Origin: Candidatus Delongbacteria bacterium
Lineage (GTDB): Bacteria > CAIWAD01
DNA: 64,000 nucleotides
Direction of reading: 5' to 3'
NCBI GenBank assembly: GCA_963663545.1
Contig: OY760505.1
Location: 256,001 to 320,000 of the forward strand
Shown here: one piece after another, positions 17,812 through 58,942 of the stretch
How positions within the stretch are numbered: the first letter of the stretch is position 1
Layout: each line of letters begins with the position of its first letter
Made by a program: the position numbers and the translations under genes
Notes under the pieces: model-generated
Databases searched by the model: none
The model's input: the letters and a program-made list of their open reading frames with translations, nothing else
What the model was told of the DNA's origin: nothing

Positions 17812-17842
17812 TATCGCTACCGGTATCGGTATCGGGATCGAC
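17812..17842. repeat. (ATCGGT)n-type hexamer tract
   Basis: ttatcgctaccggtatcggtatcgggatcg; same family at about 21282, 29601, 29772, 49780 and 62729. Confidence 0.7.
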
Positions 17843-18008
17843 TCCAAGGGTGTCGGACCGTGATTCCAAGCTAGCGCAGCCTCAGACAGTGAAATCAGGA
17901 GTGGGATGTATCACAGCATGATCGTGATACACGACAAATGGGACGTGCAATGAAGAGCTGGAAAGTAGGTGCGGCGTGATTCCTGCACCCAGTCCAAATC
18001 TGTAATAC

Positions 18009-18038
18009 GAAAACGAGGCCCAAGCGGGCCTCGTTTCT
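18009..18038 (-). terminator. Intrinsic terminator
   Basis: aaacgaggccc-aagc-gggcctcgttt downstream of the 18070 gene. Confidence 0.7.
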
Positions 18039-18069
18039 TCTACACAGAAAAGGTGAATGAAAGTCAGGG

Positions 18070-18972
18070 CTAACGCACCAGCACCATCTTGCGGGTCTCC
18101 GTCAGCCGACCCGACTGCAGGCGGTAGAAATAGGTACCGCTGGGCAGGTTGGCCGCGTCGAAGGACACCGTGTGCTGCCCGCTCTCCATCAAACCGTTCG
18201 CCAGCGTGCTCACCAACGAACCATTCAGGTTGTAGACCTTCAGCTGAGTCATCTCGGTCTCGGGCAAGCTGAAGCTGATGGCGGTAGTGGGGTTGAAGGG
18301 GTTCGGATAGTTCTGGCTCAGGCCAAAGCTACCAGCGACCGGATCGGCGGAGGCTACTGGAGGTGCAGCAGGTAGGCCCTCGAGGGTGACGCTGTAGGCG
18401 ATCTCGTCGGGGAAATCGGTACCGTAGCCGAAGAGACCCAGCAGCAGCCAGTACTGACCGGCATTCAGGGTGATATCGTAGCTAACGATGCCGTCGATTG
18501 ACTCGTACTCAGAGCTCAAGTCGTAGCCCGGAACTGAACAGTCCAAAGTACCCACGCTGTTGCCATAAACGGTAGCGTAGAATGGGATCACGGTTTCCGT
18601 CTCGGCGTAGACGGTCAGCGTGGTGGTTTCGGTCAAAGTGATCTCGTACCAGTCCAGGTCGCGGAAGTTGTTGCCACTACTGGTAACGTAGGTGAACAAG
18701 GTGCCACAGATGTGGGCGTATGCCGGCTGTGCCATGTAAGGAATGGAGTTGCATGCGCCGTTTTGATCCGCGACTGGATCACTGTGCGGAGGCAGGTTTT
18801 CCAGGAAGGCGCCGTCGCAGCTCAGATCACGCGGTCCAGGAATGCAAGCCGCCGTCGGGGCGGGCGTGTAACCAGCCGGAGCCTGTACAGCGGAGGTTGA
18901 AGAAGCGAGGTTGGCGTTGGCGTTTAGTGAGAGGGCACAGGCCAGACAAGTGACGATGAGCATACGGTTCAT
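18070..18972 (-). CDS. Secreted protein with C-terminal T9SS/FlgD-Ig-type sorting domain
   Basis: Signal peptide MNRMLIVTCLACALSLNANA; DLDWY pre-peptidase-like motif; C-terminal FGLSQNYPNPFNPTT...SGTYFYRL...KMVLVR. Confidence 0.85.
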   Translation of the reverse strand: MNRMLIVTCLACALSLNANANLASSTSAVQAPAGYTPAPTAACIPGPRDLSCDGAFLENLPPHSDPVADQNGACNSIPYMAQPAYAHICGTLFTYVTSSGNNFRDLDWYEITLTETTTLTVYAETETVIPFYATVYGNSVGTLDCSVPGYDLSSEYESIDGIVSYDITLNAGQYWLLLGLFGYGTDFPDEIAYSVTLEGLPAAPPVASADPVAGSFGLSQNYPNPFNPTTAISFSLPETEMTQLKVYNLNGSLVSTLANGLMESGQHTVSFDAANLPSGTYFYRLQSGRLTETRKMVLVR

Positions 18973-19249
18973 TCTAAATCCTTCCTTCTCCCCCAGGGGC
19001 CGCCTGAGGTATGTTTGATGTTGCATTGCCAATTCGCCAGCCGCAGTGGCAAAGGGTGTGCCACGAATTTCAATCACCGGATATTACACTATTTAGGCCC
19101 ATTCTTTACTCGTGCCGAGTCGCAATTTTGCCCGATTTTGAACACTTCCAAGCATACTGACAGATTTCCTGTATAAAACCCCGCCGTTGGGCGGGGGCTC
19201 TGGAAGCTTAATTGATTGGCTAGTGGACCGATTCGCGTTGAGGGCGAGC

Positions 19250-20006
19250 TTATTTAAGTAGCATCACCTTCTGGATTGCACTTTCATGCGGCGTGCTCAC
19301 TTTGATCAAGTATAAACCGCTGGCAAGATCTGCGGCTGAGAAAGCGTACTGGTTCTCGCCGGCAGTGCACTCCTCGTCCAGCAGCAGCCGTACACGCTGT
19401 CCGCACAGATTAAAGACCTCAAGACGCGTGCGGGCCGATGCGGGCTGCGCCCAGCGCACAAGGGTCGTTGGATTGAAAGGATTAGGATAGTTGTCGTGTA
19501 ACACCAGCGACCCGGGTATCACGGCCTGTTCCTTCACTCCCGAGGAAGTCAGGCCCAGCGCGGTCGATAAATAGTCGACGGCGCTCTCCGGCGTGTACTA
19601 GTGCAGCGAGAGAGCCGTGATACGACACTCGAAGGGCTCGTCGACCCACACTCCGGCAACGCGGCCATTGTTGTCGTCGCTGGTCTGCCAGACGCAGGCC
19701 TCGTAGCCCTCTTGCAGATAGTCCTCAGCCATGGGAGCTAAAGCGATGACCAGTGAATCGGGATTCTGGGCAGCCACCAGCTCTTCGTCTATCACCAGAT
19801 TCGTTCCAGAGGGTGAGTGTGTCCCACCCGCGCGGATGCCTCTCAGAAGCTCCGTGAGGAGACCATACTCGGTGGGAGTCTCGTACACGAGCATTACCGG
19901 CTCCCCGGCTCCCAACTCCAAGTAGTCCATCCCAGGAATGCTGCCGGGCAAACACCCCTGTCCCGTCACCAGCACGCGTCCGCCAATGCGTGTGATGGGA
20001 TTGAGC
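19250..20006 (-). pseudogene. 5'-truncated secreted-protein gene with an in-frame TAG and a C-terminal sorting domain
   Basis: ORFs 19598..20014 and 19250..19537 are in the same frame and separated only by TAG at 19598-19600 (…RITALSLH*YTPESAVDYL…NYPNPFNP…KVMLLK). The 5' end abuts the tandem array. Confidence 0.75.
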
Positions 20007-20960
20007 TGCAGCACAGCTGGTCAGCAAGCGATTTCACTCAGCTTTCTGCAACCATCTCTTGCAGGCAACTGCAATAGCCTGTACATCGCGGCCTCTTCGC
20101 GAGCATGGCTCAATTGGTAGAGTGCCAGCTTCCCAGTTCCTCTGCTGCACGCGGACGCGTAGCGTCTGAGGTGCAGCATAGCTGGTCAGCAAGCGATTTC
20201 ACTCAGCTTTCTGCAACCATCTCTTGCAGGCAACTGCAATAGCCTGTACATCGCGGCCTCTTCGCGAGCATGGCTCAATTGGTAGAGTGCCAGCTTCCCA
20301 GTTCCTCTGCTGCACGCGGACGCGTAGCGTCTGAGGTGCAGCACAGCTGGTCAGCAAGCGATTTCACTCAGCTTTCTGCAACCATCTCTTGCAGGCAACT
20401 GCAATAGCCTGTACATCGCGGCCTCTTCGCGAGCATGGCTCAATTGGTAGAGTGCCAGCTTCCCAGTTCCTCTGCTGCACGCGGACGCGTAGCGTCTGAG
20501 GTGCAGCACAGCTGGTCAGCAAGCGATTTCACTCAGCTTTCTGCAACCATCTCTTGCAGGCAACTGCAATAGCCTGTACATTGTGACCCACTTGCGAGCG
20601 TAACTCAGTTGGTAGAGTGCCAGCTTCCCAGTTCCTCTGCTGCACGCGGACGCGTAGCGTCTGAGGTGCAGCACAGCTGGTCAGCAAGCGATTTCACCCG
20701 GCTTTCTGCAACTATCTCTTGCAGGCAACTGCAATAGCCTGTACATCGCGGCCTCTTCGCGAGCATGGCTCAATTGGTAGAGTGCCAGCTTCCCAGTTCC
20801 TCTGCTGCACGCGGACGCGTAGCGTCTGAGGTGCAGCACAGCTGGTCAGCAAGCGATTTCACTCAGCTTTCTGCAACCATCTCTTGCAGGCAACTGCAAT
20901 AGCCTGTACATTGTGACCCACTTGCGAGCGTAACTCAGTTGGTAGAGTGCCAGCTTCCCA
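20007..20960 (+). repeat. Tandem array with a 165-bp period, ~5.8 units: promoter + tRNA-Gly 5' half + 44-bp hairpin + AGCTGGTC
   Basis: tRNA 5' halves start at 20099, 20264, 20429, 20594 and 20759, and the full tRNA at 20924 (exact 165-bp spacing). Confidence 0.95.
20884..20912 (+). promoter_or_regulatory. Sigma70-type promoter of tRNA-Gly (repeated in every array unit)
   Basis: TTGCAG-N17-TACATT followed by a GC-rich discriminator, ~11 nt before the tRNA. Confidence 0.65.
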
Positions 20961-20996
20961 AGCTGGTCGTCGCGGGTTCGAGCCCCGTCGCTCGCT
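20924..20996 (+). tRNA. tRNA-Gly (anticodon CCC), CCA not encoded
   Basis: Acceptor stem GCGAGCG/CGCTCGC, D-arm, anticodon stem CCAGC-TTCCCAA-GCTGG, T-arm with GGTTCGAG. Confidence 0.96.
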
Positions 20997-21004
20997 GTTT
21001 GTCA

Positions 21005-21183
21005 GCTTCGCTGACAACTCGCCGAAGACACCCGAGGGCGTCTTCGCCACAAAAGCAGCTGCCGTTCTCCGCTACGCGGAGAACAAACTCATCAGGGAAC
21101 ATGCTTCGCTGACAACTCGCCGAAGACACCCGAGGGCGTCTTCGCCACAAAAGCAGCTGCCGTTCTCCGCTACGCGGAGAACA
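21005..21183. repeat. Two direct copies (81 bp, period 98) of a double-hairpin REP-like unit
   Basis: gcttcgctgacaactcgccgaagacacccgagggcgtcttcgcc...gttctccgctacgcggagaaca at 21005 and 21103. Confidence 0.9.
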
Positions 21184-21217
21184 GATCCATCGAAGTATGT
21201 GAACCGTGTCTGGGTTT

Positions 21218-21316
21218 GTGCCAGCTTCCCTGTTCCTCTGCTGCACGCGGACGCGCAGCGTCTGAGGTGCAGCACGGCTCTCCGATACCGATACCGATAC
21301 CGATACCGATATCGAT
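21218..21316. repeat. Solo copy of the anticodon-stem fragment + 44-bp hairpin, followed by (CCGATA)n
   Basis: gtgccagcttccc-tgttcctctgctgcacgcggacgcgcagcgtctgaggtgcagcac, then about five ccgata units. Confidence 0.85.
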
Positions 21317-21321
21317 GGGAG

Positions 21322-22320
21322 CTACTCCGCGCTGTGTTTTCTCAGGCTGCCGGCGACATCGCCTTTCCATTCTGCGCTCGTCTCAAGCGGACAGATCTCG
21401 GGAGGAGTTTCGTACCAGCGCTGCATGCCTTTGCGCCAATGACACCAGCTGGTTTCCGGGCCAAAATCGTGGGTGCTGAGCACGCAGGTTTCGCCCTGCG
21501 GGCTGAGGGCGTGTATCACGACTGATCCCAGAAAGCCCTCGCGCAGCCGGGCCATATCGGCCATCGCTTCGTGACAGGCCTCCTCCACACTCAGGCCGAA
21601 ACGCATGGCGGCCACCACTGCGCGCGCCGTGCCCGCTCGAATCGTCATCTCGCCGGTGTGGGTGCAGGCACAGGCTCCGTAGCGCTGATCGACGTAGAGG
21701 CCCGCGCCAATGACCGGCGAATCCCCCAGACGGCCAGGATACTTGTGCGCCCAACCGCTGGTGCTGGTGCCTCCTGCCAGCTGGCCTTGCTTGTTAATGC
21801 AGAGCAGAACCGTGGTGCCCTTGGCCATGTGCAGGCTCTCGCGCGGCCAGCAATAGGGCGCTAGCGGCTCACGACCAGAAAGCGCATTGCTCAGTCGTGC
21901 GCTCTGACGCTGTCGATGCCAGACTTCGCTTTCGTCGCTAAGCATCTCCGCTTCGGCAGCACCCACTTCACGGGCAAATCGTGCAGCACCTTCACCCACC
22001 AGCATCACGTGAGGCAATTTCTCCATGACACGGCGTGCTACACTGACCGCATGCAGGTAGCCGGAAAGCGCTCCCACACTGCCGCAGCAGCGTGTTACGC
22101 CATCCATGATGGCCGCATCGCACTCCACCACTCCTGCCAGATTGGGGTAACCGCCATAACCGACGGTACGCACAGCAGGATCGGCCTCCACGGGATGAAT
22201 GCCCGCCTCAACAACGTCCAAGGCGCTCTTGCCAGCCTCCAGGGCCAGTACAGCGGCATCCATGCCCACGCGTCCTTCGCCATTCATCAGTACCAGCACA
22301 ACAAGCTCCCTTGCCTGCAA
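21322..22320 (-). CDS. Isoaspartyl peptidase / glycosylasparaginase family Ntn-hydrolase
   Basis: TVGYGGYPN, ECDAAIMDG, GTT nucleophile site, TSTSGWAHKYPGRLGDSPVIGAG; start uncertain. Confidence 0.88.
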   Translation of the reverse strand: MQARELVVLVLMNGEGRVGMDAAVLALEAGKSALDVVEAGIHPVEADPAVRTVGYGGYPNLAGVVECDAAIMDGVTRCCGSVGALSGYLHAVSVARRVMEKLPHVMLVGEGAARFAREVGAAEAEMLSDESEVWHRQRQSARLSNALSGREPLAPYCWPRESLHMAKGTTVLLCINKQGQLAGGTSTSGWAHKYPGRLGDSPVIGAGLYVDQRYGACACTHTGEMTIRAGTARAVVAAMRFGLSVEEACHEAMADMARLREGFLGSVVIHALSPQGETCVLSTHDFGPETSWCHWRKGMQRWYETPPEICPLETSAEWKGDVAGSLRKHSAE

Positions 22321-22334
22321 GCGTCACTTATGTA

Positions 22335-23303
22335 TCACACCCGCCCACGAATCAGCAGAAAGAGAAAGAAAGGGCCACCCAACAGCGCCGTTAGAATACC
22401 CACCGGCATTTCCGCAGGAGCCAGCAGACTACGGGCCAGTGTATCACAGGCCACCAGAAACAGGCCACCGGCAGGAAACACCCAAGCACCAAGGCGCGCG
22501 TGCGTCGGCCCCAGCAGAAGACGCAGAATATGCGGCACCATCATGCCCACAAAGGCGATGGGACCGCAGACGGCCACCACCGCGCCCACAATCAGCGCAC
22601 TGGTTCCCAGCACAACGCGTCTCACACGGCGCAGATTCACGCCACGACTGGCGGCCAGCTCCTCGCCCGTGCACAACAAATCCAGCTCTCGGTGATGCAG
22701 TAGTAGCACAACGGATCCGCCAAGCACCAGCAAGGCCGTGAAGATCAGCTGCACCGTACCCGGAGCCGTGATACTCCCCATCAGCCAGCGCAGCAGACGA
22801 AAGGTCTGGGTGTAATCCGCCAGATATTGGGCCAGCATGACCAGGCTGCCGCAAATGAAATTGAGCGCCACACCCGCTAGAAGCAGACTGTGCTGCGTCA
22901 GTCCACCGGCAGCGCGTCCCACCAGCAGCACCAGGCCCATGGTGGCAAGCGCTCCCCCCATTGCGCCCGCAACACTCAAGCCTCCTGCCAGGCCGACTCC
23001 CAGGCCGAAAAGCGTCACCATCGCTGCGCCCAGCGACGCACCGGAAGCCAGTCCCAGTGTGTAGGGTGTGGCGAGCGGGTTGCGAAACAGCGCCTGGTAG
23101 ACCATGCCCGCGACCGCCAGGCCGCCTCCAGCCAGAAAGGCCAACAACACGCGCGGCAAACGCAGGTGCAAGAGGATCATCTGCTCATAGCCCGTGCTCT
23201 GCCAGAATGCGGGGGAAATCCAGGGCACACCGGCACTCACCGCCAGCAGCAGAAGAAAGGGCAACAGCACGTAGAGCAGAACCAGAGGCAGTCGCTGACT
23301 CAC
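22335..23303 (-). CDS. FecCD/BtuC-family ABC permease
   Basis: RLPRVLL, QALFRNPLATP, GEELAASRGV, GPIAFVGMMVPH. Confidence 0.92.
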   Translation of the reverse strand: MSQRLPLVLLYVLLPFLLLLAVSAGVPWISPAFWQSTGYEQMILLHLRLPRVLLAFLAGGGLAVAGMVYQALFRNPLATPYTLGLASGASLGAAMVTLFGLGVGLAGGLSVAGAMGGALATMGLVLLVGRAAGGLTQHSLLLAGVALNFICGSLVMLAQYLADYTQTFRLLRWLMGSITAPGTVQLIFTALLVLGGSVVLLLHHRELDLLCTGEELAASRGVNLRRVRRVVLGTSALIVGAVVAVCGPIAFVGMMVPHILRLLLGPTHARLGAWVFPAGGLFLVACDTLARSLLAPAEMPVGILTALLGGPFFLFLLIRGRV

Positions 23304-29600: not shown

Positions 29601-29950
29601 ATCGGTATCGGTGCCGACTCCTTTGGAGTCGGATCGAGTCTTCTCTTCTCCCTTCGTCCTTCTGTCACTACCAGCACCAACGAATGCTTCGCCAGCCTCT
29701 CTGATCGGACGGTGATACAACCGATTGTCGGAGAGAGTGGAAGGGAAGAAGACAAAGACTAAGACTAAGAACGATACCGATACCGATACCGATAGCGATA
29801 CCGATAAAGTGTATGAGGGATCGTAACATGGGCTTCACGAATGCCTATGGACGAAGCCATGCCGCTTCGTAGAGTGACGTGTTGAGCCAGGTCCTGAAGC
29901 ATGGCTTCGTCGAGGTGTCGCGCACGAAGTGCTCGACACACCGATAGCGA
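29601..29950. repeat. Non-coding mosaic repeat: inverted (ATCGGT)n/(ACCGAT)n tracts plus a stem/36-nt-loop module
   Basis: atcggtatcggtgccgactc…gagtcgg; gataccgataccgatacc; gacgaagccatgc…gcatggcttcgtcgaggtg. Confidence 0.8.
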
Positions 29951-33626: not shown

Positions 33627-34352
33627 TCAGAAAAGATCGCCAACAGCACTGGAGCCATTGGCCGTTTCGTCGCCCGTCTCATCCGGTTCTATGATTTCAG
33701 CCACGGAGGCCATCTCAACCTCCTGGTCGTCGATGATCAACAATGCCAGACCCTCACTGAAATGCACTGCGGTTACTTCGCCGCGCAACATGGCACGAAT
33801 CTCTACTTCCTCACCGGCTGAATCCTCAGCGGAGATCTCGATGGTGTAGGTGCCATCGGGAAGCTGCGTACCCGCGCTATCCTTGCCATCCCAAGAGACC
33901 GTGCCATCTCCATTGGGCTCCGTTGTGAAGCTCGCAAGCTGCGCACCCAGCGAATCCAGCACCTTCACCGTTACCTCAGATGGCTCCACCAACGCTTCAT
34001 AGGAAAGGGTGGCTTCGCCATCACGCAGCAAAATGCCATCGTGCACGGCAACCACTTCCTTACCGATCAAACCTGTGGCCATCTCGCTCTGAACGGAGCT
34101 AGCTAGAACCGTGGTCATCTCGATCTGGGTTTCCATCTGATCGTTCAGGTTTTCCATCTGCTCAAGGGAGGAGAATTGGGCGAGCTGCGCGGCGAACTCT
34201 TGTGACTCAAGTGGATTCAGCGGATCCTGATTCTGCAGCTGCACGACAAGCAATTGCAGGAAGTCGTCCTTGCTCATCACGGAGTTGTCACTGACGACGG
34301 ACGAGGCGTCGTAGGTGTAGGTGTTACTACTGATCGCGGTGATGTCACTCAT
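33627..34352 (-). CDS. flgD: Hook cap FlgD
   Basis: FLQLLVVQLQNQDPLNP, QLAQFSSLEQ, WDGKD. Confidence 0.95.
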   Translation of the reverse strand: MSDITAISSNTYTYDASSVVSDNSVMSKDDFLQLLVVQLQNQDPLNPLESQEFAAQLAQFSSLEQMENLNDQMETQIEMTTVLASSVQSEMATGLIGKEVVAVHDGILLRDGEATLSYEALVEPSEVTVKVLDSLGAQLASFTTEPNGDGTVSWDGKDSAGTQLPDGTYTIEISAEDSAGEEVEIRAMLRGEVTAVHFSEGLALLIIDDQEVEMASVAEIIEPDETGDETANGSSAVGDLF

Positions 34353-37300
34353 CTCAATGTCTCCTCACCAAAGGCGGCCATTTCCGATGCGAAATCCGCA
34401 TCGCCCTGTTTCACGCCGACCTCTTCAGGCCGACTCTGACCCTGCTCCTGACCGGATTGCGATCCGGTCTGCTGCCGCCTGGCACTCTCATCCTGCACCG
34501 CCAGCTCCACCTGATCCAGCCGAATGCCGGATCGCTGCAACTGCTCGCGCAGTTCGTTCAACCCCTCGCGCACTGTGTCACGTCCCGCGTGACTCTCAGC
34601 AATCACACGCAGACTTACTTCGCCCTGCTGTTCACTCAACTGCAGCCGAATTCTGCCTAGCTGGGCGGGATTCAACTCCATCAGGGCTTCGCGACGACCG
34701 CTGTACTGCATCAGCCGCATGCGCGCCGATAGGCGCTCCATGTTGGCTATCACCTGTCGACGCTGTTCCGCGCTTTCTTCCGTGGACAGTGAGCGGCTGT
34801 CCATTGTCTGCGCAGTACCTTGCCCGTCGCTGCTGTCAAAGCGCACACGCTGAAGTCCGCTTGTGGAAGCATTCCAGACCACTTTTGTCACGTCTGCAAC
34901 CGGCATCTCCGCAGCCTGCCGTTTCACGCTTGGCAAATCCCGCGCCTGTTTCTGCGAATTGTCTTCCTGTTGCTGTCTCTCGGCGTCTGTTGCGCCAAAA
35001 ACGCGATCCATTTCGCGGCGCAAACGGCTGCCTTCTCCCTGGCTGAGTACACTGTCACGCTCGTTCTGTGTCACAGATGTATCACGGGAATTCGCTTTAA
35101 CTCCGCCGTCTCCACTGTCCAAGCGGTTTCCAAAGCTCGTCGTCTGAAGCGAGTTCACAACTCCCGCCATCTCAGCGCTGCGCATCATTCCCTCGCGGCT
35201 GACCGCAATCAGCACATCCATGTCCTGCAACAAAGCGCTGATGGGACGCTGGCTAATTTGTGCGGACTGAGTTGGTGTCGGTTCAGGAGCTGCAACTAGG
35301 GAAGTTGCGGACTTCTGAAGGGAAAGCTCTTCCGACATTGTTGCAGGCCTTGTGGCGCTTTCTGCCCCTTCTACTTCCTCGGCACTGCGTGCTATATCCA
35401 GCTCGGGCACGGTCCACTCCGTATGTGCAGTGGAGCGATTGCCGGTTTGATTCGCCCAGCGCACAGCGTCAGGCCTAAGCTCATCGTGGATTAGCGATGA
35501 GGTAGCGGTCTGTGTCCCCACGGATGACTGGAACTCATCGGGATTCCCTGTCGCTTTCACGGAAGTAGAATCGTCAGAGGGACTGTCTTGCGCCTGTGTC
35601 ATTTGCTGAGGCTCAGACGGCGTCGCGCTCTGAGATTGCGGCTCAATCGGCAGGGTCGTTGGCTCCGCGACGATCCGTGTCACGGGCGTAGGAGCTGACT
35701 CCATATCAGCAATGGCCTGTGTCTGTGGCGGTGTCACAGTCTGCGGCTGCAGTTCAGTCGGCACGGTCGTTGGATCAGCGGCAACTCGTGTCACAGGCGT
35801 GGAAGTCGATTCGCCAGGCACGCTTGCCTGTGCCTGCGGCTCAATCTGCGATTGCGTGGCGTGTTGCGGCGCAGAGTGAATTGCCTGTTGCGGCTCCGTC
35901 GGCACGACCAACGGCTCAGCGGCAACTCGTGTCACGGGCGTGGAAGTCGAATCGCCAGATGCACCTGCCTGAACCTGCTGCGCGATCTGCGATTGCGCGG
36001 CTTGTTGCGGCGCAGATTGAGTTGCGTGTTGCGGCTCCGTCGGCACGGTTGTTGGATCAGCGGCAACTCGTGTCACGGGCGCGGCTGTCGATTCCGCAGA
36101 TACACTGGCCTGTGCCTGCGGCGCAATCTGCGATTGCGCGGCTTGTTGCGGCGCAGATTGAGTTGCGTGTTGCGGCTCCGTCGGCACGGTTGTTGGATCA
36201 GCGGCAACTCGTGTCACGGGCGCGGCTGTCGATTCCGCAGATACACTGGCCTGTGCCTGCGGCGCAATCTGGGATTGCGTGGATTGTTGCGGCGCAGAGT
36301 GAGTTGCCTGCTGCGGCTCCGTCGGCACGGCCAAAGGCTCAGCGGCAACTCGTGTCACGAGCGCGGCTGTAGAGTCGCCTGACACACTTGTCTGTGCCTG
36401 CGGCACGATCTGCGATTGCGCGGCTTGTTGCGGCGCAGACTGAGTTGCCTGCTGCGGCTGCGTCGGCGCGGCCACCGGTTCAACGGCAACTCGTGTCACG
36501 AGCGCGGCTGTAGAGTCGCCTGACACACTTGTCTGTGCCTGCGGCACGATCTGCGATTGCGCGGCTTGTTGTGGCGCAGAGTGAGTTGCCTGCTGCGGCT
36601 CCGTCGGCACGGCCATCGGCTCAACGCCAACTCGTGTCACGGGCGTGGAAGTCGACTCGCCAGATGCACCAGCCTGAACATGCTGCACGATCTTCGATTG
36701 CGCGGCTTGTTGCGGCGCAGACTGAGTTGCCTGCTGCGGCTGCGTCGGCGCGGCCACCGGTTCAACGGCAACTCGTGTCACGAGCGCGGCTGTAGAGTCG
36801 CCTGACACACTTGTCTGTGCCTGCGGCACGATCTGCGATTGCGCGGCTTGTTGTGGCGCAGAGTGAGTTGCCTGCTGCGGCTCCGTCGGCACGGCCATCG
36901 GCTCAACGCCAACTCGTGTCACGGGCGTGGAAGTCGACTCGCCAGATGCACCAGCCTGAACATGCTGCACGATCTTCGATTGCGCGGCTTGTTGCGGCGC
37001 AGAGTGGGTTGCCTGCTGCGGATCAGTCGAAACGACCGATGGCTCGACGGCTACTCGTGTCACGGACACGGCTGTCGATTCGCCAGACACGTTTGCCTGG
37101 TCCTGCTGCGCGATCTGCGATTGCGCGGTTTGTTGCGGCGCAGATTGAGTTGCCTGTTGCGGCTGCGTCGGCGCGGCCACCGGTTCAACGGCAACTCGTG
37201 TCACGAGCGCGGCTGTAGAGTCGCCTGACACACTTGTCTGTGCCTGCGGCTCGATCTGGGATTGCGCGGCGTGTTGCGGCGCAGAGTGAGTTGCCTGTTG

Positions 37301-40300
37301 CGGCTCCGTCTGCACGGCCAACGGCTCAGCGGCAACTCGTGTCACGGGCGCGGAAGTCGATTCGCCAGGCACGCGTGCTTGAACCTGCGGCTCGATCTGC
37401 GACTGCGCGGCGTGTGGCGGCGCAGAGTGAATTGCCTGTTGCGGCTCCGTCGAAACGACCGTTGACTCAACGACGACTCGTGTCACGGGCGCAGCAGTCG
37501 ATTCGCCAGGCACGCTTGCTTGAACCTGCTGCGCGATCTGCGATTGCGCGGCTTGTTGCGGCGCAGAGTGAGGTGCCTGTTGCGGCTCAGTTGGCACGCC
37601 CAAAGGTTCAACGGCTGCTCGTGTCACGGGCGCAGCAGTCGATTCGCCAGGCACGCTTGCCTGGGCCTGCGGCTCAATCTTCGATTGCGTGGATTGTTGC
37701 GGCGCAGAGTGAGTTGCCTGTTGCGGCTCCGTCGAAACAACCGTTGACTCAGCGACAACTCGTGTCACAGGCGCAGCAGTCGATTCGCCAGACACACTAG
37801 ACTGAACCTGCTGTGCGATCTGCGATTGCGCGGCTTGCTGCGGCGCAGAGTGAATTGCCTGCTGCGACTCCGTCGGCGAGGCCAACGGCTCAGCGCCAAC
37901 TCGTGTCACGGGCGTGGAAGTCGACTCGCCAGATGCACCAGCCAGAACATGCTGCGTGATCTGCGATTTCGTGGCGTGTTGCGGCGCAGAGTGGGTGGCC
38001 TGTTGCGGCTCCGTCGGCGCGGCCATCGGCTCAGCGTTAACTCGTGTCACGGGCGCAGAAGTCGATTCGCCAGATGCACCAGCCAGAACATGCTGCGTGA
38101 TCTGCGATTTCGTGGCGTGTTGCGGCGCAGAGTGGGTGGCCTGTTGCGGCTCCGTCGGCGCGGCCATCGGCTCAGCGTTAACTCGTGTCACGGGCGCAGA
38201 AGTCGATTCGCCAGGCACGCTTGCTTGAACCTGCTGCGCGATCTGCGATTGCGCGGCTTGTTGCGGCGCAGAGTGAGTTGCCTGCTGCGGCTCCGTCGAA
38301 ACGACCGTTGACTCAACGACGACTCGTGTCACGGGCGCAGCAGTCGATTCGCCAGGCACGCTTGCTTGAACCTGCTGCGCGATCTGGGATTGCGCGGCTT
38401 GTTGCGGCGCAGAGTGAGGTGCCTGTTGCGGCTCAGTTGGCACGCCCAAAGGTTCAACGGCTGCTCGTGTCACGGGCGCAGCAGTCGATTCGCCAGGCAC
38501 GCTTGCTTGAACCTGCTGCGCGATCTGGGATTGCGTGGCGTGTTGCGGCTCTGTCGGCGAGACCAACGGCTCGGCGGCAACTCGTGTCATAGGCACAGCA
38601 GTCGATTCGCCAGGCACGTGTGCTTGAACCTGCGGCTCGATCTGCGACTGCGCAGCGTGTTGCGGCGCAGAGTGGGTGGCCTGTTGCGGCTCCGTCGGCG
38701 CAGCCATCGGCTCAACGGCAACTCGTGTCAAGGGCGCAGAAGCAGACTCGGAAGGCACGCTTGCTTGAACCTGCTGCGTGATCTGCGATTGCGTGGCGTG
38801 TTGCGGCGCAGAGTGGGTGGCCTGTTGCGGCTCCGTCGGCACGGTCGTTGGATCAGCGGCAACTCGTGTCACAGGCATTGAAGTCGATTCGCCTGACACG
38901 CTTGCCCGTACCTGCGGCGCGATCTTCGATTGCGCGGCTTGTTGCGGCGCAGAGTGAGTTGCCTGCAGCGGCTCCGTCGGCACGGCCAAAGGCTCAGCGG
39001 CACCTCGTGTCACGGGCACGGCAGTCGAATCGCCAGATGCACCTGCCTGAACCTGTTGCGCGATCTTCGATTGCGCGGCTTGTTGCGGCGCAGAGTGAAT
39101 TGCCTGTTGCGGCTCTGTCGGCACGACCAACGGTTCAGCGACTACTCGTGTCACGGGCGTTGAAGTCGATTCGCCAGACATGCTTGCCTGGGCCTGCGGC
39201 TCAATCTGCGATTGCGCAGCGTGTTGCGGTGCAGAGTGAGGTGCCTGTTGCGGCTCCGTCGGCACGGCCATCGGCTCAGCGGCAACTCGTGTCACAGGCG
39301 CAGCAGTCGATTCGCCAGGCACGCTTGCCTGGGCCTGCTGCGCGATCTGCGATTGCGCGGCTTGTTGCGGCGCAGAGTGAGGTGCCTGCTGAGGCTCCGT
39401 TGGCGCGGCCAACGGTTCAGCGGCAACTCGTGTCACGGGCGCAGAAGCAGACTCGGAAGGCACGCTTGCCTGGGCCTGCGGCTCAATCTTCGATTGCGTG
39501 GCGTGTTGCGGCGCAGAGTGGGTTGCCTGTTGCGGCTCCGTCGACACGGCCAAAGGTTCAACGGCAACTCGTGTCACAGGCGCAGCAGTCGATTCGCCAG
39601 ACACGCTTGCCTGGGCCTGCGGCTCAATCTTCGATTGCGTGGATTGTTGCGGCGCAGAGTGAGTTGCCTGCAGCGGCTCCGACAGCACGGCCACCGGTTC
39701 GGTGGCAACTCGTGTCACGGGCGCAGAAGTCGATTCGCCAGGCACGCTTGCTTGAACCTGCTGCACGATCTTCGATTGCGCAGCTAGTTGCGGCGTAGGT
39801 TGGGTTGCCTGCTGCGGCTCCGTCGGCGCGACCAAAGGTTCAACGGCAACTCCAGTCACGGGCGCGGAAGTCGACTCGCCAGATGCACCAGCCTGAACAT
39901 GCTGCATGATCTTCGATTGCGTGGCGTTTTGCGGCGCAGAGTGAGTTGCCTGCAGCGGCTCAGTTGGCACGGCCAACGGTTCAACGGCAACTCGTGTCAC
40001 GGGCGCAGAAGCAGACTCGGAAGGCACGCTTGCTTGAACCTGCTGCGCGATCTGCGATTGCGTGGCGTGTTGCGGCGCAGAGTGGGTTGCCTGTTGCGGC
40101 TCCGTCGGCGCAGCCATCGGCTCAACGGCAACTCGTGTCACGGGCGAGGCTGTCGACTCGCCAGAAGCACCAGCCTGAACATGCTGCACGATCTTCGATT
40201 GCGCAGCTAGTTGCGGCGTAGGTTGGGTTGCCTGTTGCGGCTCCGTCGGCACGGCCATCGGCTCAGCGCCAACTCGTGTCACGGGCGCGGCAGTCGATAC

Positions 40301-42436
40301 GGCAGACACACTGGCCTGTGCCTGCGGCTCGATCTGCGATTGCGTGGCTTGCTGCGGCGCAGACTGTGTTGCCTGCTGCGGCTCCGTCGGCACGGCCAAT
40401 GGCTCAACGGCACCTCGTGTCACGGACGCGGCTGTCGATTCGCCAGATGCACCAGCCTGAACATGCTGCACGATCTTCGATTGCGCAGCTAGTTGCGGCG
40501 CAGAGTGGGTTGCCTGCTGCGGCTCCGTCGGCACGGCCAATGGCTCAACGGCACCTCGTGTCACGGACGCGGCTGTCGATTCGCCAGACACGTTTGCCTG
40601 GTCCTGCTGCGCGATCTGCGATTGCGCGGCTTGTTGCGGCGTAGGTTGGGTTGCCTGCTGCGGCTCCGTCGGCACGGTCGTTGGATCAGCGGCAACTCGT
40701 GTCACAGGCATTGAAGTCGATTCGCCTGACACGCTTGTCTGGGCCTGGGTCTCGATCTGCGATTGCGTGGCGTTTTGCGGCGCAGAGTGAGTTGCCTGTT
40801 GCGGCTCCGTCGGCGCAGCCAACGGCTCAGCGGCACCTCGTGTCACAGACGCGGCTGTCGATTCGGCAGACACGCTTGCCTGGTCCTGCTGCGCGATCTG
40901 CGATTGCGCGGCTTGTTGCGGCGTAGGTTGGGTTGCCTGCTGCGGCTCCGTCGGCACGGTCGTTGGATCAGCGGCAACTCGTGTCACAGGCATTGAAGTC
41001 GATTCGGCAGACACACTGGCCTGTGCCTGCGGCTCGATCTGCGACTGCATGGATTGCTGCGGCGCAGAGTGAATTGCCTGCTGCGACTCCGTCGGCGAGG
41101 ACAACGGCTCAGCGCCAACTCGTGTCACGGGCGTGGAAGTCGACTCGCCAGATGCACCAGCCTGAACATGCTGCACGATCTTCGATTGCGCAGCTTGTTG
41201 CGGCGTAGATTGGGTCGCCTGCTGCGGCTCCGTCGGCACGGTCGTTGGATCAGCGGCAACTCGTGTCACGGGCGCAGTGGCAGACTCACTAGAGGCGACG
41301 GCCTGTGTCTGTGTCTGTGTCGTTGCTCGCGGTTGCGGCGCAGGCTGCGCACTAGCAGTCGCGATCTCCTGTCTTGCCATTTGCGGCATCGCAACTGCAT
41401 CTGGCCGACTTGTTGAACGGGAAGCAGAATCGCCGTCAAGCTGTGACACGTGCGTTGGCGAAGTTTCTGCAGCCCCAGCCCGCACGGCAGGATTCACAGG
41501 CTCCCGCGAGATCGTGGTCGACTCTTTCGTAAAGACATCGCTTGTCCGATAGCGAATCTGCGCGCTACGCTCGCGCTGCCAGTCCTCCAACGCATCGGCC
41601 TCGTCCTGGAGCTGTTTGAAAGCAAGCACGCCCGATTCTTCGTCAGCGGAAGAGGCTTCGGTCTCGGCACTGGAGTGTGTCACAGCTTCTGCAGGCGATT
41701 CGCTTGTCCTCGGGACATCTGCACTTGTCTGCAGCGTATCACCGGCTTGCGACCGGTCCTGCCGGGTCAAGGTCTGAGCAAGACTCTGCTTCTGAGTCTG
41801 CTGCTGTGCCAACGGTTCCGTCTTCAGCAGCTGCACTTCAGGCCGTGCTTCTGCTGTAGCACGTGGCAGGTTCACGGGAGCTGCATCACCGCGCTGGTAT
41901 TCGTCCGGAGCAGCAACACCACTCATCGAGTCGTTGGCAGCTTCCTCGCCGGTCTTTTTGGCTAGGACGTCAACGCCCTCAGTCGCAGGGCGCGAAGTGG
42001 TGTTTGAGGAGACACTCCACAGCAGTGTGCCTGCCGCATCGGACGATGGTTCCTGCAGCAACTCATGGCTAGGCTCGGATTCATCTTCGCTACCGAAAGA
42101 TGGTGCGAGGGAAGCGTCGACAGCCTTTCGTGACACGGGCTCATCCTGAATCAGCCACTCCTCCAGTAGTTCGCTGGCGCGTGATACGCCGACCGCCGGT
42201 CGTTGCGTGATCAACTGAGAAGTCTGCTCAGGCAGGCTCGAGTTTTTTGTCTTCTCTGCCGATTGATACTGCGCCAGCGCAGCAGCAAAGCTCGTGGCTT
42301 TCCCGCCCTCCTGACTGCGCAGTTCGGCAAGCAGCTGCTCCAACTGGCGACCGGGTGACGCAGAGACGCCTGTACCGGCTTGTTCGCCGGTAGCAAAAAA
42401 GAAGAAACTGCTCTGCGAGTCGACCCTGCCCTGCAT
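34349..42436 (-). CDS. fliK: Flagellar hook-length control protein FliK, giant, with a central 47-aa repeat
   Basis: Lies just upstream of flgD; C-terminal Flg_hook domain (LNPAQLGRIRLQL…LNELREQLQRSGI); ATG after AGGAG; uninterrupted frame. Confidence 0.88.
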   Translation of the reverse strand: MQGRVDSQSSFFFFATGEQAGTGVSASPGRQLEQLLAELRSQEGGKATSFAAALAQYQSAEKTKNSSLPEQTSQLITQRPAVGVSRASELLEEWLIQDEPVSRKAVDASLAPSFGSEDESEPSHELLQEPSSDAAGTLLWSVSSNTTSRPATEGVDVLAKKTGEEAANDSMSGVAAPDEYQRGDAAPVNLPRATAEARPEVQLLKTEPLAQQQTQKQSLAQTLTRQDRSQAGDTLQTSADVPRTSESPAEAVTHSSAETEASSADEESGVLAFKQLQDEADALEDWQRERSAQIRYRTSDVFTKESTTISREPVNPAVRAGAAETSPTHVSQLDGDSASRSTSRPDAVAMPQMARQEIATASAQPAPQPRATTQTQTQAVASSESATAPVTRVAADPTTVPTEPQQATQSTPQQAAQSKIVQHVQAGASGESTSTPVTRVGAEPLSSPTESQQAIHSAPQQSMQSQIEPQAQASVSAESTSMPVTRVAADPTTVPTEPQQATQPTPQQAAQSQIAQQDQASVSAESTAASVTRGAAEPLAAPTEPQQATHSAPQNATQSQIETQAQTSVSGESTSMPVTRVAADPTTVPTEPQQATQPTPQQAAQSQIAQQDQANVSGESTAASVTRGAVEPLAVPTEPQQATHSAPQLAAQSKIVQHVQAGASGESTAASVTRGAVEPLAVPTEPQQATQSAPQQATQSQIEPQAQASVSAVSTAAPVTRVGAEPMAVPTEPQQATQPTPQLAAQSKIVQHVQAGASGESTASPVTRVAVEPMAAPTEPQQATHSAPQHATQSQIAQQVQASVPSESASAPVTRVAVEPLAVPTEPLQATHSAPQNATQSKIMQHVQAGASGESTSAPVTGVAVEPLVAPTEPQQATQPTPQLAAQSKIVQQVQASVPGESTSAPVTRVATEPVAVLSEPLQATHSAPQQSTQSKIEPQAQASVSGESTAAPVTRVAVEPLAVSTEPQQATHSAPQHATQSKIEPQAQASVPSESASAPVTRVAAEPLAAPTEPQQAPHSAPQQAAQSQIAQQAQASVPGESTAAPVTRVAAEPMAVPTEPQQAPHSAPQHAAQSQIEPQAQASMSGESTSTPVTRVVAEPLVVPTEPQQAIHSAPQQAAQSKIAQQVQAGASGDSTAVPVTRGAAEPLAVPTEPLQATHSAPQQAAQSKIAPQVRASVSGESTSMPVTRVAADPTTVPTEPQQATHSAPQHATQSQITQQVQASVPSESASAPLTRVAVEPMAAPTEPQQATHSAPQHAAQSQIEPQVQAHVPGESTAVPMTRVAAEPLVSPTEPQHATQSQIAQQVQASVPGESTAAPVTRAAVEPLGVPTEPQQAPHSAPQQAAQSQIAQQVQASVPGESTAAPVTRVVVESTVVSTEPQQATHSAPQQAAQSQIAQQVQASVPGESTSAPVTRVNAEPMAAPTEPQQATHSAPQHATKSQITQHVLAGASGESTSAPVTRVNAEPMAAPTEPQQATHSAPQHATKSQITQHVLAGASGESTSTPVTRVGAEPLASPTESQQAIHSAPQQAAQSQIAQQVQSSVSGESTAAPVTRVVAESTVVSTEPQQATHSAPQQSTQSKIEPQAQASVPGESTAAPVTRAAVEPLGVPTEPQQAPHSAPQQAAQSQIAQQVQASVPGESTAAPVTRVVVESTVVSTEPQQAIHSAPPHAAQSQIEPQVQARVPGESTSAPVTRVAAEPLAVQTEPQQATHSAPQHAAQSQIEPQAQTSVSGDSTAALVTRVAVEPVAAPTQPQQATQSAPQQTAQSQIAQQDQANVSGESTAVSVTRVAVEPSVVSTDPQQATHSAPQQAAQSKIVQHVQAGASGESTSTPVTRVGVEPMAVPTEPQQATHSAPQQAAQSQIVPQAQTSVSGDSTAALVTRVAVEPVAAPTQPQQATQSAPQQAAQSKIVQHVQAGASGESTSTPVTRVGVEPMAVPTEPQQATHSAPQQAAQSQIVPQAQTSVSGDSTAALVTRVAVEPVAAPTQPQQATQSAPQQAAQSQIVPQAQTSVSGDSTAALVTRVAAEPLAVPTEPQQATHSAPQQSTQSQIAPQAQASVSAESTAAPVTRVAADPTTVPTEPQHATQSAPQQAAQSQIAPQAQASVSAESTAAPVTRVAADPTTVPTEPQHATQSAPQQAAQSQIAQQVQAGASGDSTSTPVTRVAAEPLVVPTEPQQAIHSAPQHATQSQIEPQAQASVPGESTSTPVTRVAADPTTVPTELQPQTVTPPQTQAIADMESAPTPVTRIVAEPTTLPIEPQSQSATPSEPQQMTQAQDSPSDDSTSVKATGNPDEFQSSVGTQTATSSLIHDELRPDAVRWANQTGNRSTAHTEWTVPELDIARSAEEVEGAESATRPATMSEELSLQKSATSLVAAPEPTPTQSAQISQRPISALLQDMDVLIAVSREGMMRSAEMAGVVNSLQTTSFGNRLDSGDGGVKANSRDTSVTQNERDSVLSQGEGSRLRREMDRVFGATDAERQQQEDNSQKQARDLPSVKRQAAEMPVADVTKVVWNASTSGLQRVRFDSSDGQGTAQTMDSRSLSTEESAEQRRQVIANMERLSARMRLMQYSGRREALMELNPAQLGRIRLQLSEQQGEVSLRVIAESHAGRDTVREGLNELREQLQRSGIRLDQVELAVQDESARRQQTGSQSGQEQGQSRPEEVGVKQGDADFASEMAAFGEETLR
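35720..41330 (-). repeat. ~40 tandem 141-bp (47-aa) repeats inside fliK
   Basis: Unit of type PVTRVAAEPLAVPTEPQQATHSAPQQAAQSQIAQQVQASVPGESTAA; one shortened 39-aa unit; copy number estimated as span/141. Confidence 0.95.
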
Positions 42437-42445
42437 GGGCAACTC

Positions 42446-49730: not shown

Positions 49731-51126
49731 GATAGGGGGGCGTGCTTGCCCCCCTATGGAATTTGTTTCCCCCCGCTCAAATCGGTATCGGTGCCGACCC
49801 TGCGGGTCGGATCGCTATCGGTATCGAGGCATTGCCGTGCAGCCAGCCGTATGTATCCTATGGACGAAGGCGTGCTACTCTGTGGAACGACGCTGACAGC
49901 TGAGTTCATTTGCACGACTTCGTCGAGGTCACGTGCGCAGCGCGTGACACGCCTAGCGGCGGGGCTCTCGTCTGCGACGCAGCGAAAGAGCACCGCCGAC
50001 GCGGTGCAGGACCTACTTTTCTTTGTCGCAACAAAGAAAAGTAGGGCAAAAGAAAATGCTCGGGCTCTCCGACCCGAGGACGCTTGTCCGCTGGACAACC
50101 GCCGCGGGCGGGTACCATATGCTTGCAGCAGGGCTACGCTCATGTGTTCACACCTTCGGTGTTCACTTATGGCCTTACGGCCATTTGGGTGTGTCTGCTA
50201 TAGGGATGAGTGGCTGTATGGTTGAAGAATCGGGGCCGATTCTTCAGCCTCTTCTGACGGGAAGCCCAGTGTACACTATGGACGAAGACCCGCAATTTAG
50301 CGGAGTTGCAAATACGGTCGCACGAGATGCGGGGCTTCGTCGAGGTGCTGACCGCATAGCGGGCAGCACACCTGTATGGCTGAAGAATCGGCAGCCGATT
50401 CTTCGGCTTCTCTTCGACAGGAAGCCATTGTACACTGTGGGCGAAGACGTGCAGTTTCGTAGCGATGAGATTGCAGCAATTCATGATGCACGGGTTCGCC
50501 GAGGTGTTTTGCGAAGCAAAACACACGCGGGCGGGCACCATTTGATGGCTGAGGGGCTACGCTCATGTGTTCACAACGTAGGGCAGAATTCGCAAAGCGG
50601 ATTCTGCGAGCGACTTGACCCGAAGCAAAGCTAAGGGGCAAGTCGACGTTCACCTCTGGCCTAACGGCCATCTGGGTGAGCTGGCTTAGGGGTAGAGTGG
50701 CTGTATGGCTGAAGAATCGGCAGCCGATTCTTCGCCTTCTCTTCGACAGGAAGCCATTGTACACTGTGGGCGAAGACGTGCAGTTTCGTAGCGATGAGAT
50801 TGCAGCAATTCATGATGCACTGGTTCGCCGAGGTGTTTTGCGAAGCAAAACACACGCGGGCGGGTACCATTTATTGGCTTCTGGGCTACGCTCATTTGTT
50901 CACACCTTCGGTGTTCACTCTTGGCCTAACGGCCATCTGGGTGAGCTGGCTTAGGGGTAGAGTGGCTGTATGGCTGAAGAATCGGCAGCCGATTCTTCGG
51001 CTTCTCTTCGACAGCAATCATTGAAGGCCAGGAGGAGATTTCTCGCGAATTCGCAGAGCGGCGCAAGCGGCTCAAACTGAATGCGAGGAATCTCCGAGGT
51101 GTCGAGCACGTCGTGCTCGACACACG
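49731..51126. repeat. Left mosaic hairpin element (non-coding, with internal direct repeats)
   Basis: Hairpins gaagaatcggcagccgattcttc, gtgttttgcgaagcaaaacac, gcagaattcgcaaagcggattctgc, tactttctttg-type; ~200-bp duplication (about 50373 and 50700) and ~90-bp duplication (about 50657 and 50922). Confidence 0.85.
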
Positions 51127-51129
51127 AGT

Positions 51130-51534
51130 TCAATGCTTGAGCAGTTGCTTCAAATCGATGGTGCTTGCAGGGAAAGCGGCAAGCAGACCTTTGTCGGACG
51201 TGAAGAGGGGCACTTCCAGGCGCCGGGCCAGGGTAAGAAACTCGCAGTCGTAGGCCGGGCACGCGGATTCGTCGACACAGGAAAGCACATCAGCCGAGGC
51301 AGGCTCGTACTCCCCGCCGCTCATCAGTTCTTCCGCCTCCGTCATGAGTTGCAGAGCGGCACTTCTGCTTAGCTGACCGCCGCGCATGTACTGCGCAAGT
51401 ACGTTGCGGAACTCGCTGCGCCACAGCAGGGGAGCAAGCCAGTGGGAATCGCGCATGAACAGGGCTTCCGCATGAGGTGTGTACTCGCCCTCAATCAGCA
51501 GATAGGCAATCACATTGGTGTCCACGACAATCAT
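51130..51534 (-). CDS. vapC: PIN-domain VapC-type toxin
   Basis: IVVDTNV, SEFRNVL, AYDCEF, LFTSDK. Confidence 0.9.
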   Translation of the reverse strand: MIVVDTNVIAYLLIEGEYTPHAEALFMRDSHWLAPLLWRSEFRNVLAQYMRGGQLSRSAALQLMTEAEELMSGGEYEPASADVLSCVDESACPAYDCEFLTLARRLEVPLFTSDKGLLAAFPASTIDLKQLLKH

Positions 51535-51773
51535 GAGCGCCCCTGCGTACGCGCCTGGTCCAGTAGCTCCTGGGTCAATGCGGGCAGTTTGCGCCGACTA
51601 CGAGCGGCCGCCAGACGCTCGAGCAGCTCGTGCCTGCCCGAGGGACACGACCCCAGCGATGTGCTCAAGCGGTATAAGATTTCTCCTGCAATGCTGCGGT
51701 AGTTGGCTTGGGCACTGAATCTGATCCTCTCATACAAATCGTCGGGAATGTTCTTCAAGGTGATGGCTGGCAT
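51531..51773 (-). CDS. Ribbon-helix-helix (Arc/FitA-like) antitoxin
   Basis: MPAITLKNIPDDLYERIR…A..N.RS…EI; ATGA overlap with the toxin gene. Confidence 0.85.
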   Translation of the reverse strand: MPAITLKNIPDDLYERIRFSAQANYRSIAGEILYRLSTSLGSCPSGRHELLERLAAARSRRKLPALTQELLDQARTQGRS

Positions 51774-52048
51774 AGACGGCCTCGTGGTTCCATTTCGGTT
51801 GTGATTCGGAACCTAGTTTCAGCCTTGCACAAACACAAGCTACTTCCGCCTTGCTGGATTCCCTCCAGTATTTGGTCCTGAGGAAGGGGACGAGATCGTG
51901 GTGTCAGCGAACCTGCACACTTTTCTGCTCTCGTTCACCTGTTCTTTCTCATGACACGAGCGGGGCAATGGATCGGTATCTCTTTCGGCAGTGGTTTCGA
52001 CTTCCCGGAACACGTGGTCTACCGGCAATTTGGAGAAGTTGGCCGTTG

Positions 52049-52448: not shown

Positions 52449-52468
52449 CGATCATCTCATGTGTTGTT

Positions 52469-52600
52469 GGCTAACGTCGGCTTCTGCGGCACACGGCTAG
52501 TGGGTGTCGACTCGAAGCGAGTCGGGCGACGCTTGCGTCGCAAGATCTACGGGTTCGCGAAGCGAACCGGCTTTCGCTGAACCGTAACTTATGCATGCTC
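52469..52600 (-). mobile_element. Degenerate or partial attC site
   Basis: GGCTAAC (GTTAGCC on the minus strand) just upstream of the DUF1801 start, followed by GCGAAGC-type hairpins; the matching R'' arm is not clearly found. Confidence 0.5.
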
Positions 52601-58131: not shown

Positions 58132-58146
58132 TGTATGTTTCCCCAC

Positions 58147-58274: not shown

Positions 58275-58275
58275 A

Positions 58276-58929: not shown

Positions 58930-58942
58930 GATTCCCTCTAAG

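Follow-up and report, generated by a model that had tools for sequence, protein, structure and literature searches.

Tandem copies of a promoter and tRNA-Gly(CCC) front half upstream of the intact gene in a Candidatus Delongbacteria genome

Anatomy of the tRNA-linked array

In a 64,000-nt stretch of a Candidatus Delongbacteria genome (assembly GCA_963663545.1, contig OY760505.1, positions 256,001 to 320,000 of the forward strand; hereafter the window, whose own numbering is used throughout), an intact tRNA-Gly(CCC) gene is preceded by a tandem array of units, each of which carries a promoter-like sequence and the front half of the same tRNA. The intact gene (20924-20996, + strand) was identified with ARAGORN and matches Rfam family RF00005 (65.2 bits, E 5e-13). 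It is the single tRNA gene that ARAGORN reports in the 64 kb, and it lacks an encoded CCA. Tandem Repeats Finder (TRF) delimits the array at 20002-20960, as 5.8 head-to-tail copies with a 165-bp period, 95% matches, no indels, and a score of 1739. When phased from AGCTGGTC, the units start at 20015, 20180, 20345, 20510, and 20675, and a sixth, starting at 20840, continues into the intact gene.

Each unit opens with AGCTGGTC (unit nt 1-8), which equals tRNA nt 38-45, followed by a 36-nt spacer (nt 9-44), TTGCAG (nt 45-50), a 17-nt spacer (nt 51-67), a hexamer that reads TACATC in units 1, 2, 3, and 5 and TACATT in units 4 and 6 (nt 68-73), an 11-nt leader (nt 74-84), tRNA nt 1-37 ending in CTTCCCA (nt 85-121), and a 44-nt hairpin formed by an imperfect palindrome (nt 122-165). 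TRF, ARAGORN, and Rfam agree with the anatomy proposed in an earlier note made from the sequence alone, namely five units with TTGCAG-N17-TACAT(C/T), tRNA nt 1-37, and a 44-bp hairpin, and a sixth with the complete tRNA. The palindrome lies between tRNA nt 37 and 38 (20136-20179, 20301-20344, 20466-20509, 20631-20674, and 20796-20839, + strand). Because the AGCTGGTC that follows it equals tRNA nt 38-45, the unit can be read as tRNA nt 1-45 with an insert, and no special junction is needed; most simply, it joins about 76 bp from upstream of the gene to tRNA nt 1-45, into which the 44-nt insert is set after nt 37. All five extra units lack the T arm and 3′ acceptor strand, and the window contains a single T arm, the only copy with both parts being the gene at 20924-20996.

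The units fall into two types, A and B, in the order A A A B A B, with the working gene (unit 6) belonging to type B. Units 1-3 (20015-20179, 20180-20344, and 20345-20509, + strand) are of A type, each consisting of AGCTGGTC, the spacer, TTGCAG-N17-TACATC, the leader, tRNA nt 1-37 with A7, G9, G10, and A15, and the palindrome, and they are mutually identical save for the last base of unit 1. Unit 4 (20510-20674, +) is of B type, with TACATT in its promoter, the leader, and tRNA nt 1-37 as in the working gene, then the palindrome; it shows no difference from unit 6 across 121 nt. Unit 5 (20675-20839, +), again of A type, has three transitions of its own at unit positions 24, 26, and 39, within the spacer. 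The upstream part of unit 6 (20840-20923, +) consists of AGCTGGTC, the spacer, a -35-like TTGCAG (20884-20889), 17 nt, a -10-like TACATT (20907-20912), and the 11-nt leader. A and B types differ at 11 sites, 10 of them transitions, all within a 27-nt patch that covers the last base of the -10 hexamer, six leader bases, and tRNA nt 7, 9, 10, and 15, with no changes in the other 138 nt.

Units this similar raise the question of whether the repeat, though real, has the copy number and the mix of unit types that the assembly gives it. Units 1-3 differ by 1 nt, and the longest identity run at a 165-nt lag is 237 nt, an exact repeat that short reads could not count. By contrast, the units can be told apart by variants that follow a set order (types A A A B A B, the three changes in unit 5, and the one in unit 1), which speaks against an assembly artefact or a blend of strains, and the LigA encoded in the window is recorded on a 3.72-Mb contig, which suggests, but does not show, an assembly of long-read grade that could bridge 1 kb of repeats. 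On balance, we consider an artefact of this kind quite improbable.

Two other readings of the unit were tried and rejected. No open frame runs through the whole unit, a stop being present in every frame of each one. The A-type changes at tRNA nt 7 and 9 make an ATG, from which a 45-codon frame spans the palindrome and spacer (20435-20572, +, and likewise in units 1, 2, and 5). This open reading frame (ORF) finds nothing in Pfam below E 0.1, and it is probably due to chance. Nor does the unit resemble a decayed whole tRNA gene with its trailer: when the spacer was compared with tRNA nt 46-73 and the downstream DNA, 969 of 2000 shuffles scored equally well.

Promoter geometry and tRNA constraint in the extra copies

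A search with the 22-nt stretch common to all units (tRNA nt 16-37) retrieved at least 119 other tRNA-Gly(CCC) loci, with one match each. Of the 119 listed, 80 have 2-kb flanks and the rest about 300 nt, and the source genome and its close relatives are not among them. Each of these loci has a normal tRNA after CCCA, and a 5′-half array is found in none of the 119. In the 116 with at least 120 nt upstream, the pattern TTGNNN-N16-18-TANNNT ending 9-22 nt 5′ of the tRNA gave 52 matches counted over loci and offsets, compared with 4 over the whole range of offsets 23 to 102. In the other loci the -10 hexamer most often lies 11 nt from the tRNA, as it does in the window, and locus L105, which has the most similar tRNA among the matches listed (97%), reads TTGTGA-N16-TACATT-N11. 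A simple sigma-70 scan did not call the TTGCAG/TACAT pair. The comparison nevertheless supports the promoter reading that the earlier note had offered, with the same pair and the same 11-nt mode recurring at the other listed loci, and it suggests that the B-type units bear a promoter of the kind and at the position used by tRNA-Gly(CCC) genes elsewhere.

The A-type units depart from this pattern. Their TACATC lacks the final T required by TANNNT, and their front halves carry A15 and GG at nt 9-10, together with an A7 that would oppose C66. All 116 tabulated loci have G15, and at nt 9-10 they read AA (112 loci) or AG (4 loci). The A-type 5′ end occurs in none of the 119 listed loci, the nearest being three mismatches off, whereas the B-type 5′ end (nt 1-15) occurs in five of them. 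Because of the T-to-C change in the -10 hexamer and the four tRNA positions that find no counterpart in these relatives, four of the five extra copies look dead, that is, they appear to be released from tRNA constraint within the patch.

The extra units might instead form a selected expression array, either making tRNA-half-like RNAs that act as regulators or as decoys for anticodon-loop nucleases, or stacking promoters to raise the output of the single tRNA. The earlier note had named such an array, for dosage control or decoys, as one of two explanations. The promoter geometry shared with other tRNA-Gly(CCC) genes is consistent with it, as are the stability of the hairpin and of the whole unit, which is more stable than its shuffles (fold z -2.64), and the variable patch would sit, seed-like, at the 5′ end of the predicted RNA. 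The identity of all units across the 138 nt outside the patch could mean constraint, but a recent expansion explains it equally well. Loss of the final -10 T from four of the five extra units, the lack of such an array at any of the 119 listed loci, the lack of a U tract after the hairpin, and the lack of an Rfam match for it all tell against selection, and the defence-like genes of the window lie 30 kb away. A benefit through dosage is also doubtful. GGG is the rarest glycine codon (74 of 803, or 9%, in the 24 ORFs with Pfam support) and the only codon that tRNA-Gly(CCC) reads by itself, so that demand for this tRNA should be low, which counts against selection for dosage. With most of the extra units decayed, we think a selected expression array unlikely, and its proposal in the earlier note did not hold up well.

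The exact acceptor stem and first 15 nt of the window tRNA are shared, among the 119 listed loci, with L025, L036, L091, L105, and L116. These come from metagenome-assembled genomes (MAGs) labelled Ignavibacteriales, Bacteroidaceae, or unclassified, which fits an FCB-group organism.

The palindrome and other tRNA-linked repeats

The palindrome is predicted to fold at -25.3 kcal/mol (z -4.27), with one of 200 shuffles as stable. Its 38-nt core occurs six times in the window at up to 3 mismatches, compared with none expected from 100 shuffles. The sixth occurrence lies downstream of the gene, in a displaced 62-nt copy (21218-21279, +) that consists of tRNA nt 25-36, a T, the palindrome, and GGCT and is 95% identical to the array copies. 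The DNA flanking this copy was rejected as a decayed unit, as 173, 1908, and 1320 of 2000 shuffles scored equally in three comparisons. Dispersed copies of the palindrome, the spacer, or the 98-bp unit of a neighbouring duplication (see below) were not found in the 64-kb window, where only chance matches of up to 11 nt were seen, and these three sequences have no match at E up to 1e-3 in the 119 listed loci. An Rfam search of 18000-23000 (E up to 1) matched only tRNA and no family for the palindrome or array. As an intrinsic terminator the palindrome also finds no support: the terminator scan calls none of the five, and AGCTGGTCAGC rather than a U tract comes next.

Two known structures that might place extra sequence in or beside a tRNA loop were considered. 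The cores of integron attC sites follow the consensus GTTRRRY / RYYYAAC. The insert begins with GTTCCTC, which misfits the RRR positions, the inverse core is absent, and the window scan found no integrase. In archaeal split and intron-bearing tRNA genes, such as those of Nanoarchaeum and Caldivirga, the 5′ half has a promoter of its own and stops at nt 37, and extra sequence sits at the canonical position 37/38. The 5′ halves in the window likewise end at nt 37 and are followed by extra sequence at 37/38. Unlike the archaeal split tRNAs, however, they have no matching 3′ halves, with 8 tRNA nt after the insert and then no T arm (ARAGORN across 64 kb; Rfam in 18000-23000). Nor is there a bulge-helix-bulge at 37/38: by inspection, insert bases 39-42 (CAGC) are unable to pair with tRNA nt 32-35 (TTCC), and the predicted folds give one long hairpin. 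The host is bacterial, as marked in the window by type IX secretion system (T9SS) cargo, flagellar genes, and an NAD-dependent ligase.

The other explanation in the earlier note was serial site-specific integration of a minimal 165-bp circle that recombines in the anticodon loop and supplies a new promoter and front half each time. The anticodon loop is reportedly a classic integrase crossover site, and the junction does lie there, with the inverted anticodon stem on both sides; the A and B types could be two variants of the circle. A further locus, L082 (described below), carries an 84-nt insert that doubles tRNA nt 1-15, which would also suit such a process. Yet the loop is not doubled on the two sides of the insert at nt 37/38, as collapsed att sites would require. 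A Pfam scan of the 53 ORFs of at least 90 aa across the 64 kb (E limits 1e-3 and 1e-5) gave no integrase, recombinase, or transposase family, although an integrase gene could sit elsewhere in the genome. Matches to 14 phage and 28 plasmid records are restricted to the tRNA. Integration of a circle would leave the leftmost unit beside unique chromosomal DNA, whereas the first unit is preceded by the same palindrome tail and has the same spacer and AGCTGGTC; it gives no role to AGCTGGTC after the palindrome; and the order A A A B A B would imply that the working tRNA had repeatedly carried a mismatched A-type front half. We therefore regard circle integration as very improbable.

Integrative elements usually duplicate the 3′ part of a tRNA; the window duplicates the 5′ part. 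In published cases, a 9-23 kb element that has an integrase is bounded on one side by a partial and on the other by a complete tRNA copy, as described for the elements treated by van der Gulik et al. (2023; PMC9897764). The window resembles these cases in that a tRNA fragment is doubled beside a complete gene and the break falls in a loop. It differs in having five copies spaced 165 bp apart, with the gene's own upstream region and no element body between them, and in the lack of an integrase in the 64-kb scan.

A closer counterpart is the tyrT/tyrV locus of E. coli K-12, where 178-bp repeats (3.1 copies, 95%) lie downstream of tyrV and overlap it by 19 nt, so that the last 19 nt of the tRNA recur at 178-nt spacing. 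This agrees with the contrast drawn in the earlier note, which had cited tyrT as a case of the 3′ end being repeated downstream. In both loci, head-to-tail repeats abut an intact tRNA, each unit contains a terminal piece of that tRNA, and the two arrays are close in identity and copy number (178 bp x 3.1 at 95% and 165 bp x 5.8 at 95%). Unlike the E. coli repeats, those in the window lie upstream and carry the promoter, the first 45 nt, and a palindrome in the anticodon loop. The window array is thus a variant of the tyrT-type tRNA-linked repeats rather than a plain member, and by analogy it is best read as a promoter-side mirror of the tyrT/tyrV 178-bp repeats. The E. coli region (rttR / tpr) is described in a recent preprint as giving a processed rtT RNA that is said to affect processing of the tyrT transcript (bioRxiv 10.1101/2024.07.17.603846).

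Among the 119 listed loci, three bear extra pieces of at least 12 nt from their own tRNA: L103, L045, and L082. L103 (341-607) has a 140-bp x 1.9 repeat after tRNA-Gly(CCC), whose unit repeats nt 56-73 in direct orientation and also carries a T-arm piece in inverted orientation; L045 has an inverted T-arm piece. A fourth locus, L069 (1432-1907), has an 80-bp x 4.3 array between tRNA-Gly(GCC) and tRNA-Gly(CCC) that is not derived from tRNA.

In L082 (1-622), 76-bp units (x 3.1) downstream of the intact tRNA consist of nt 44-73 and a 24-nt trailer, and every repeated copy, though not the working gene, has a 22-nt palindrome inserted in its T loop between nt 56 and 57 (predicted fold -25.9 kcal/mol, z -3.6). 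Upstream, a promoter with tRNA nt 1-15 is parted from the intact gene by a 69-nt insert that begins with a 46-nt hairpin; it is the 84-nt insert mentioned above, doubling nt 1-15, that displaces this promoter-bearing fragment. L023 (reverse strand, 1786-2095) has the L082 flanks with neither insert and represents an empty site. Like the window, L082 repeats one end of tRNA-Gly(CCC) and its flank in tandem, breaks the tRNA at the variable loop, places a palindrome in the loop of the neighbouring arm in each dead copy but not in the working gene, and has a promoter-bearing 5′ fragment displaced upstream. Unlike the window, it repeats the 3′ end, its palindrome is shorter and sits in the T loop, its units are 76 bp long, its 5′ fragment is single and only 15 nt, and the sequences are unrelated. 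L082 is a low-coverage short-read MAG contig of which 622 nt were compared, and this apparently close mirror of the window array is better taken as a lead than as proof. Full-text literature searches (tandem tRNA fragments, tRNA halves, template switching) found no published account of a tandem tRNA-end array like that of the window or L082.

The likeness between the two loci raises the possibility that the palindrome came first, either as a small element or as the product of a process that targets tRNA stem-loops, with the arrays arising as a by-product of the repair and recombination that the palindrome provokes beside direct repeats. The same architecture in two unrelated genomes, with inserts at nt 37/38 in the window and nt 56/57 in L082, would fit such an origin, as would the 46-nt hairpin of L082 directly after the displaced 5′ fragment, the empty site in L023, and the fact that the 62-nt copy downstream of the window gene differs precisely at the two bases flanking its palindrome. 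The palindromes of the window and L082 share no sequence, however, and no further copy turned up in the 64 kb or the 119 listed loci; the lack of a transposase or recombinase gene in the window and of a target duplication at the insert, and the quality of the L082 contig, also weigh on the other side. To us this origin appears distinctly unlikely.

Edges, surroundings, and origin of the array

On its left, the array begins inside a unit. The leftmost cut copy (20002-20014, +) is a 13-nt palindrome tail that matches at 12 of 13 positions, can be assigned with certainty from 20007 onward, and abuts the first AGCTGGTC; the palindrome DNA ahead of the first full unit thus amounts to 8-13 nt. In a local alignment of the left flank with the unit tail (TGAGcTGCAGCAC vs TGAGGTGCAGCAC), 38 of 2000 shuffles scored equally. 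The same edge truncates the gene of a T9SS-secreted protein (19253-20020, - strand), of which a remnant with a Por_Secre_tail domain is left; its N-terminal part is missing, and its frame is still open where it meets the array. The remnant is divided by an in-frame TAG (19598-19600, -) into frames of 140 and 115 aa. In a search confined to proteins of 449-2000 aa, the hits mostly match only the C-terminal sorting domain.

On the other side of the array, the tRNA is followed by a hairpin (TTGTCAG / CTGACAA; 20999-21017, +) that lacks a U tract and is not called by the terminator scan, then by a second tandem duplication (21005-21183, +; 98 bp x 1.8, 100% matches in TRF) with two hairpins per copy, the displaced 62-nt copy, and a (CCGATA) x 5.8 microsatellite (21282-21316, +; TRF) between the repeats and the end of an asparaginase gene. 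The 62-nt copy thus lies between the 98-bp duplication and the microsatellite. With three tandem repeats within 1.3 kb, a decayed neighbour, and a tRNA in low demand, the surroundings fit a gap that is unstable and weakly constrained. The downstream palindrome copy, the two unit types, the left edge inside a unit that truncates a gene, and the failure of the sigma-70 scan to call the promoter pair had all been missed by the earlier note.

Taken together, these features lead us to favour, at somewhat better than even confidence, the reading that the array is a locally generated, recombination-made satellite of the promoter-proximal part of the gene, rather than a mobile element or a designed expression array. 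We favour it because the repeat is plain and head-to-tail, with no indels and a left end cut inside a unit; because two more young tandem duplications (98 bp x 1.8 and the hexamer x 5.8) and a decayed gene adjoin it; because analogues are both known (E. coli tyrT/tyrV) and new (L103 and L082, with the empty site in L023); because four of the five extra units bear marks of decay, the unit needs no special junction, and the tRNA is in low demand; and because the 53 ORFs are free of integrases, the palindrome and spacer are undispersed in the window, and the phage and plasmid matches are to tRNA only. The idea in the earlier note that the array is amplifiable survives here as plain unequal crossing-over, while its part as a selected expression device does not.

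For a satellite of this kind, we infer the following order of events. A 121-bp segment ending in the variable loop (nt 45) would have been duplicated in tandem, and a dead copy would then have gained the palindrome. The resulting 165-bp unit may have expanded by unequal sister-copy exchange, or by replication slippage or template switching, and the working copy would have been shielded from receiving the palindrome by exchange, because the homology to the right of the insert is only 8 nt. A deletion could have removed the leftmost part of the array along with the beginning of the gene next to it, short-tract replacement in some units might have given the A patch, and a 62-nt piece would have been copied downstream. 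In such a locus the last copy alone would make tRNA. The B-type copies probably still fire as promoters, judging from their geometry, and their RNA might be read through to the tRNA and trimmed by RNase P, or might end as a short, hairpin-capped product that is not a tRNA. A selected function for the extra units is not expected.

Several observations weigh against this account. The 11 A/B changes are packed in 27 nt, and simple duplication and drift would not yield such clustering; explaining it takes either a donor that is not in view or selection acting on the remaining sequence of the unit. The source of the palindrome is not accounted for by the duplication history, and two of the three differences of the 62-nt copy fall on the bases that flank the palindrome, for which a rough estimate gives a chance of about 0.003. 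That L082 independently has a palindrome in the loop of the arm adjoining its break hints at a specific process rather than an accident. In addition, the promoter geometry is typical of working tRNA promoters, so that transcription of the units is likely, possibly with a role for the RNA. Finally, the best LigA match in the protein collection shares 72% identity and the second about 54%, a distance too great to show the ancestral state of the locus; close relatives of the source organism may be absent from public data.

A practical consequence concerns annotation, as tRNA finders miss all five of the promoter-bearing front halves. If the favoured satellite reading is right, the locus is a tidy example of a structured, highly transcribed gene shedding partial copies. 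Its import would be larger if a palindrome in a loop beside a variable-loop break marks a specific mechanism, given its occurrence in two unrelated genomes, or if the units are transcribed into stable tRNA-half-like RNAs; to our knowledge, gene-encoded, promoter-driven tRNA halves are not known in bacteria. A long shot, which joins both, is that the palindrome is a trace left by some undescribed process that works on tRNA stem-loops and seeds arrays, and that the units make hairpin-capped 5′ tRNA-half RNAs that are used as decoys or regulators. The locus would then be a new kind of tRNA-derived repeat locus and not junk.

Elsewhere in the window, the CCGATA/CGATAC hexamer of the microsatellite occurs at a minimum of four sites (21282-21316, 29772-29806, approximately 62760-62782, and approximately 17812-17840), two of which are called by TRF with 5.8 copies each. 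A low-GC stretch at about 51000-62000 (43-48% compared with about 60%) encodes PIN (51130-51534), SIR2_2 (59009-60508), and Mrr_cat plus DUF4062 (60501-61454) domains, together with several ORFs without an assigned family, and looks like an acquired defence island. A 2697-aa ORF (34349-42442, -) ends in a C-terminal FliK hook-length domain and includes a 141-bp (47-codon) repeat in about 39 tandem copies (35746-41275; 81-84% identity); it is unusually long for a hook-length control protein.

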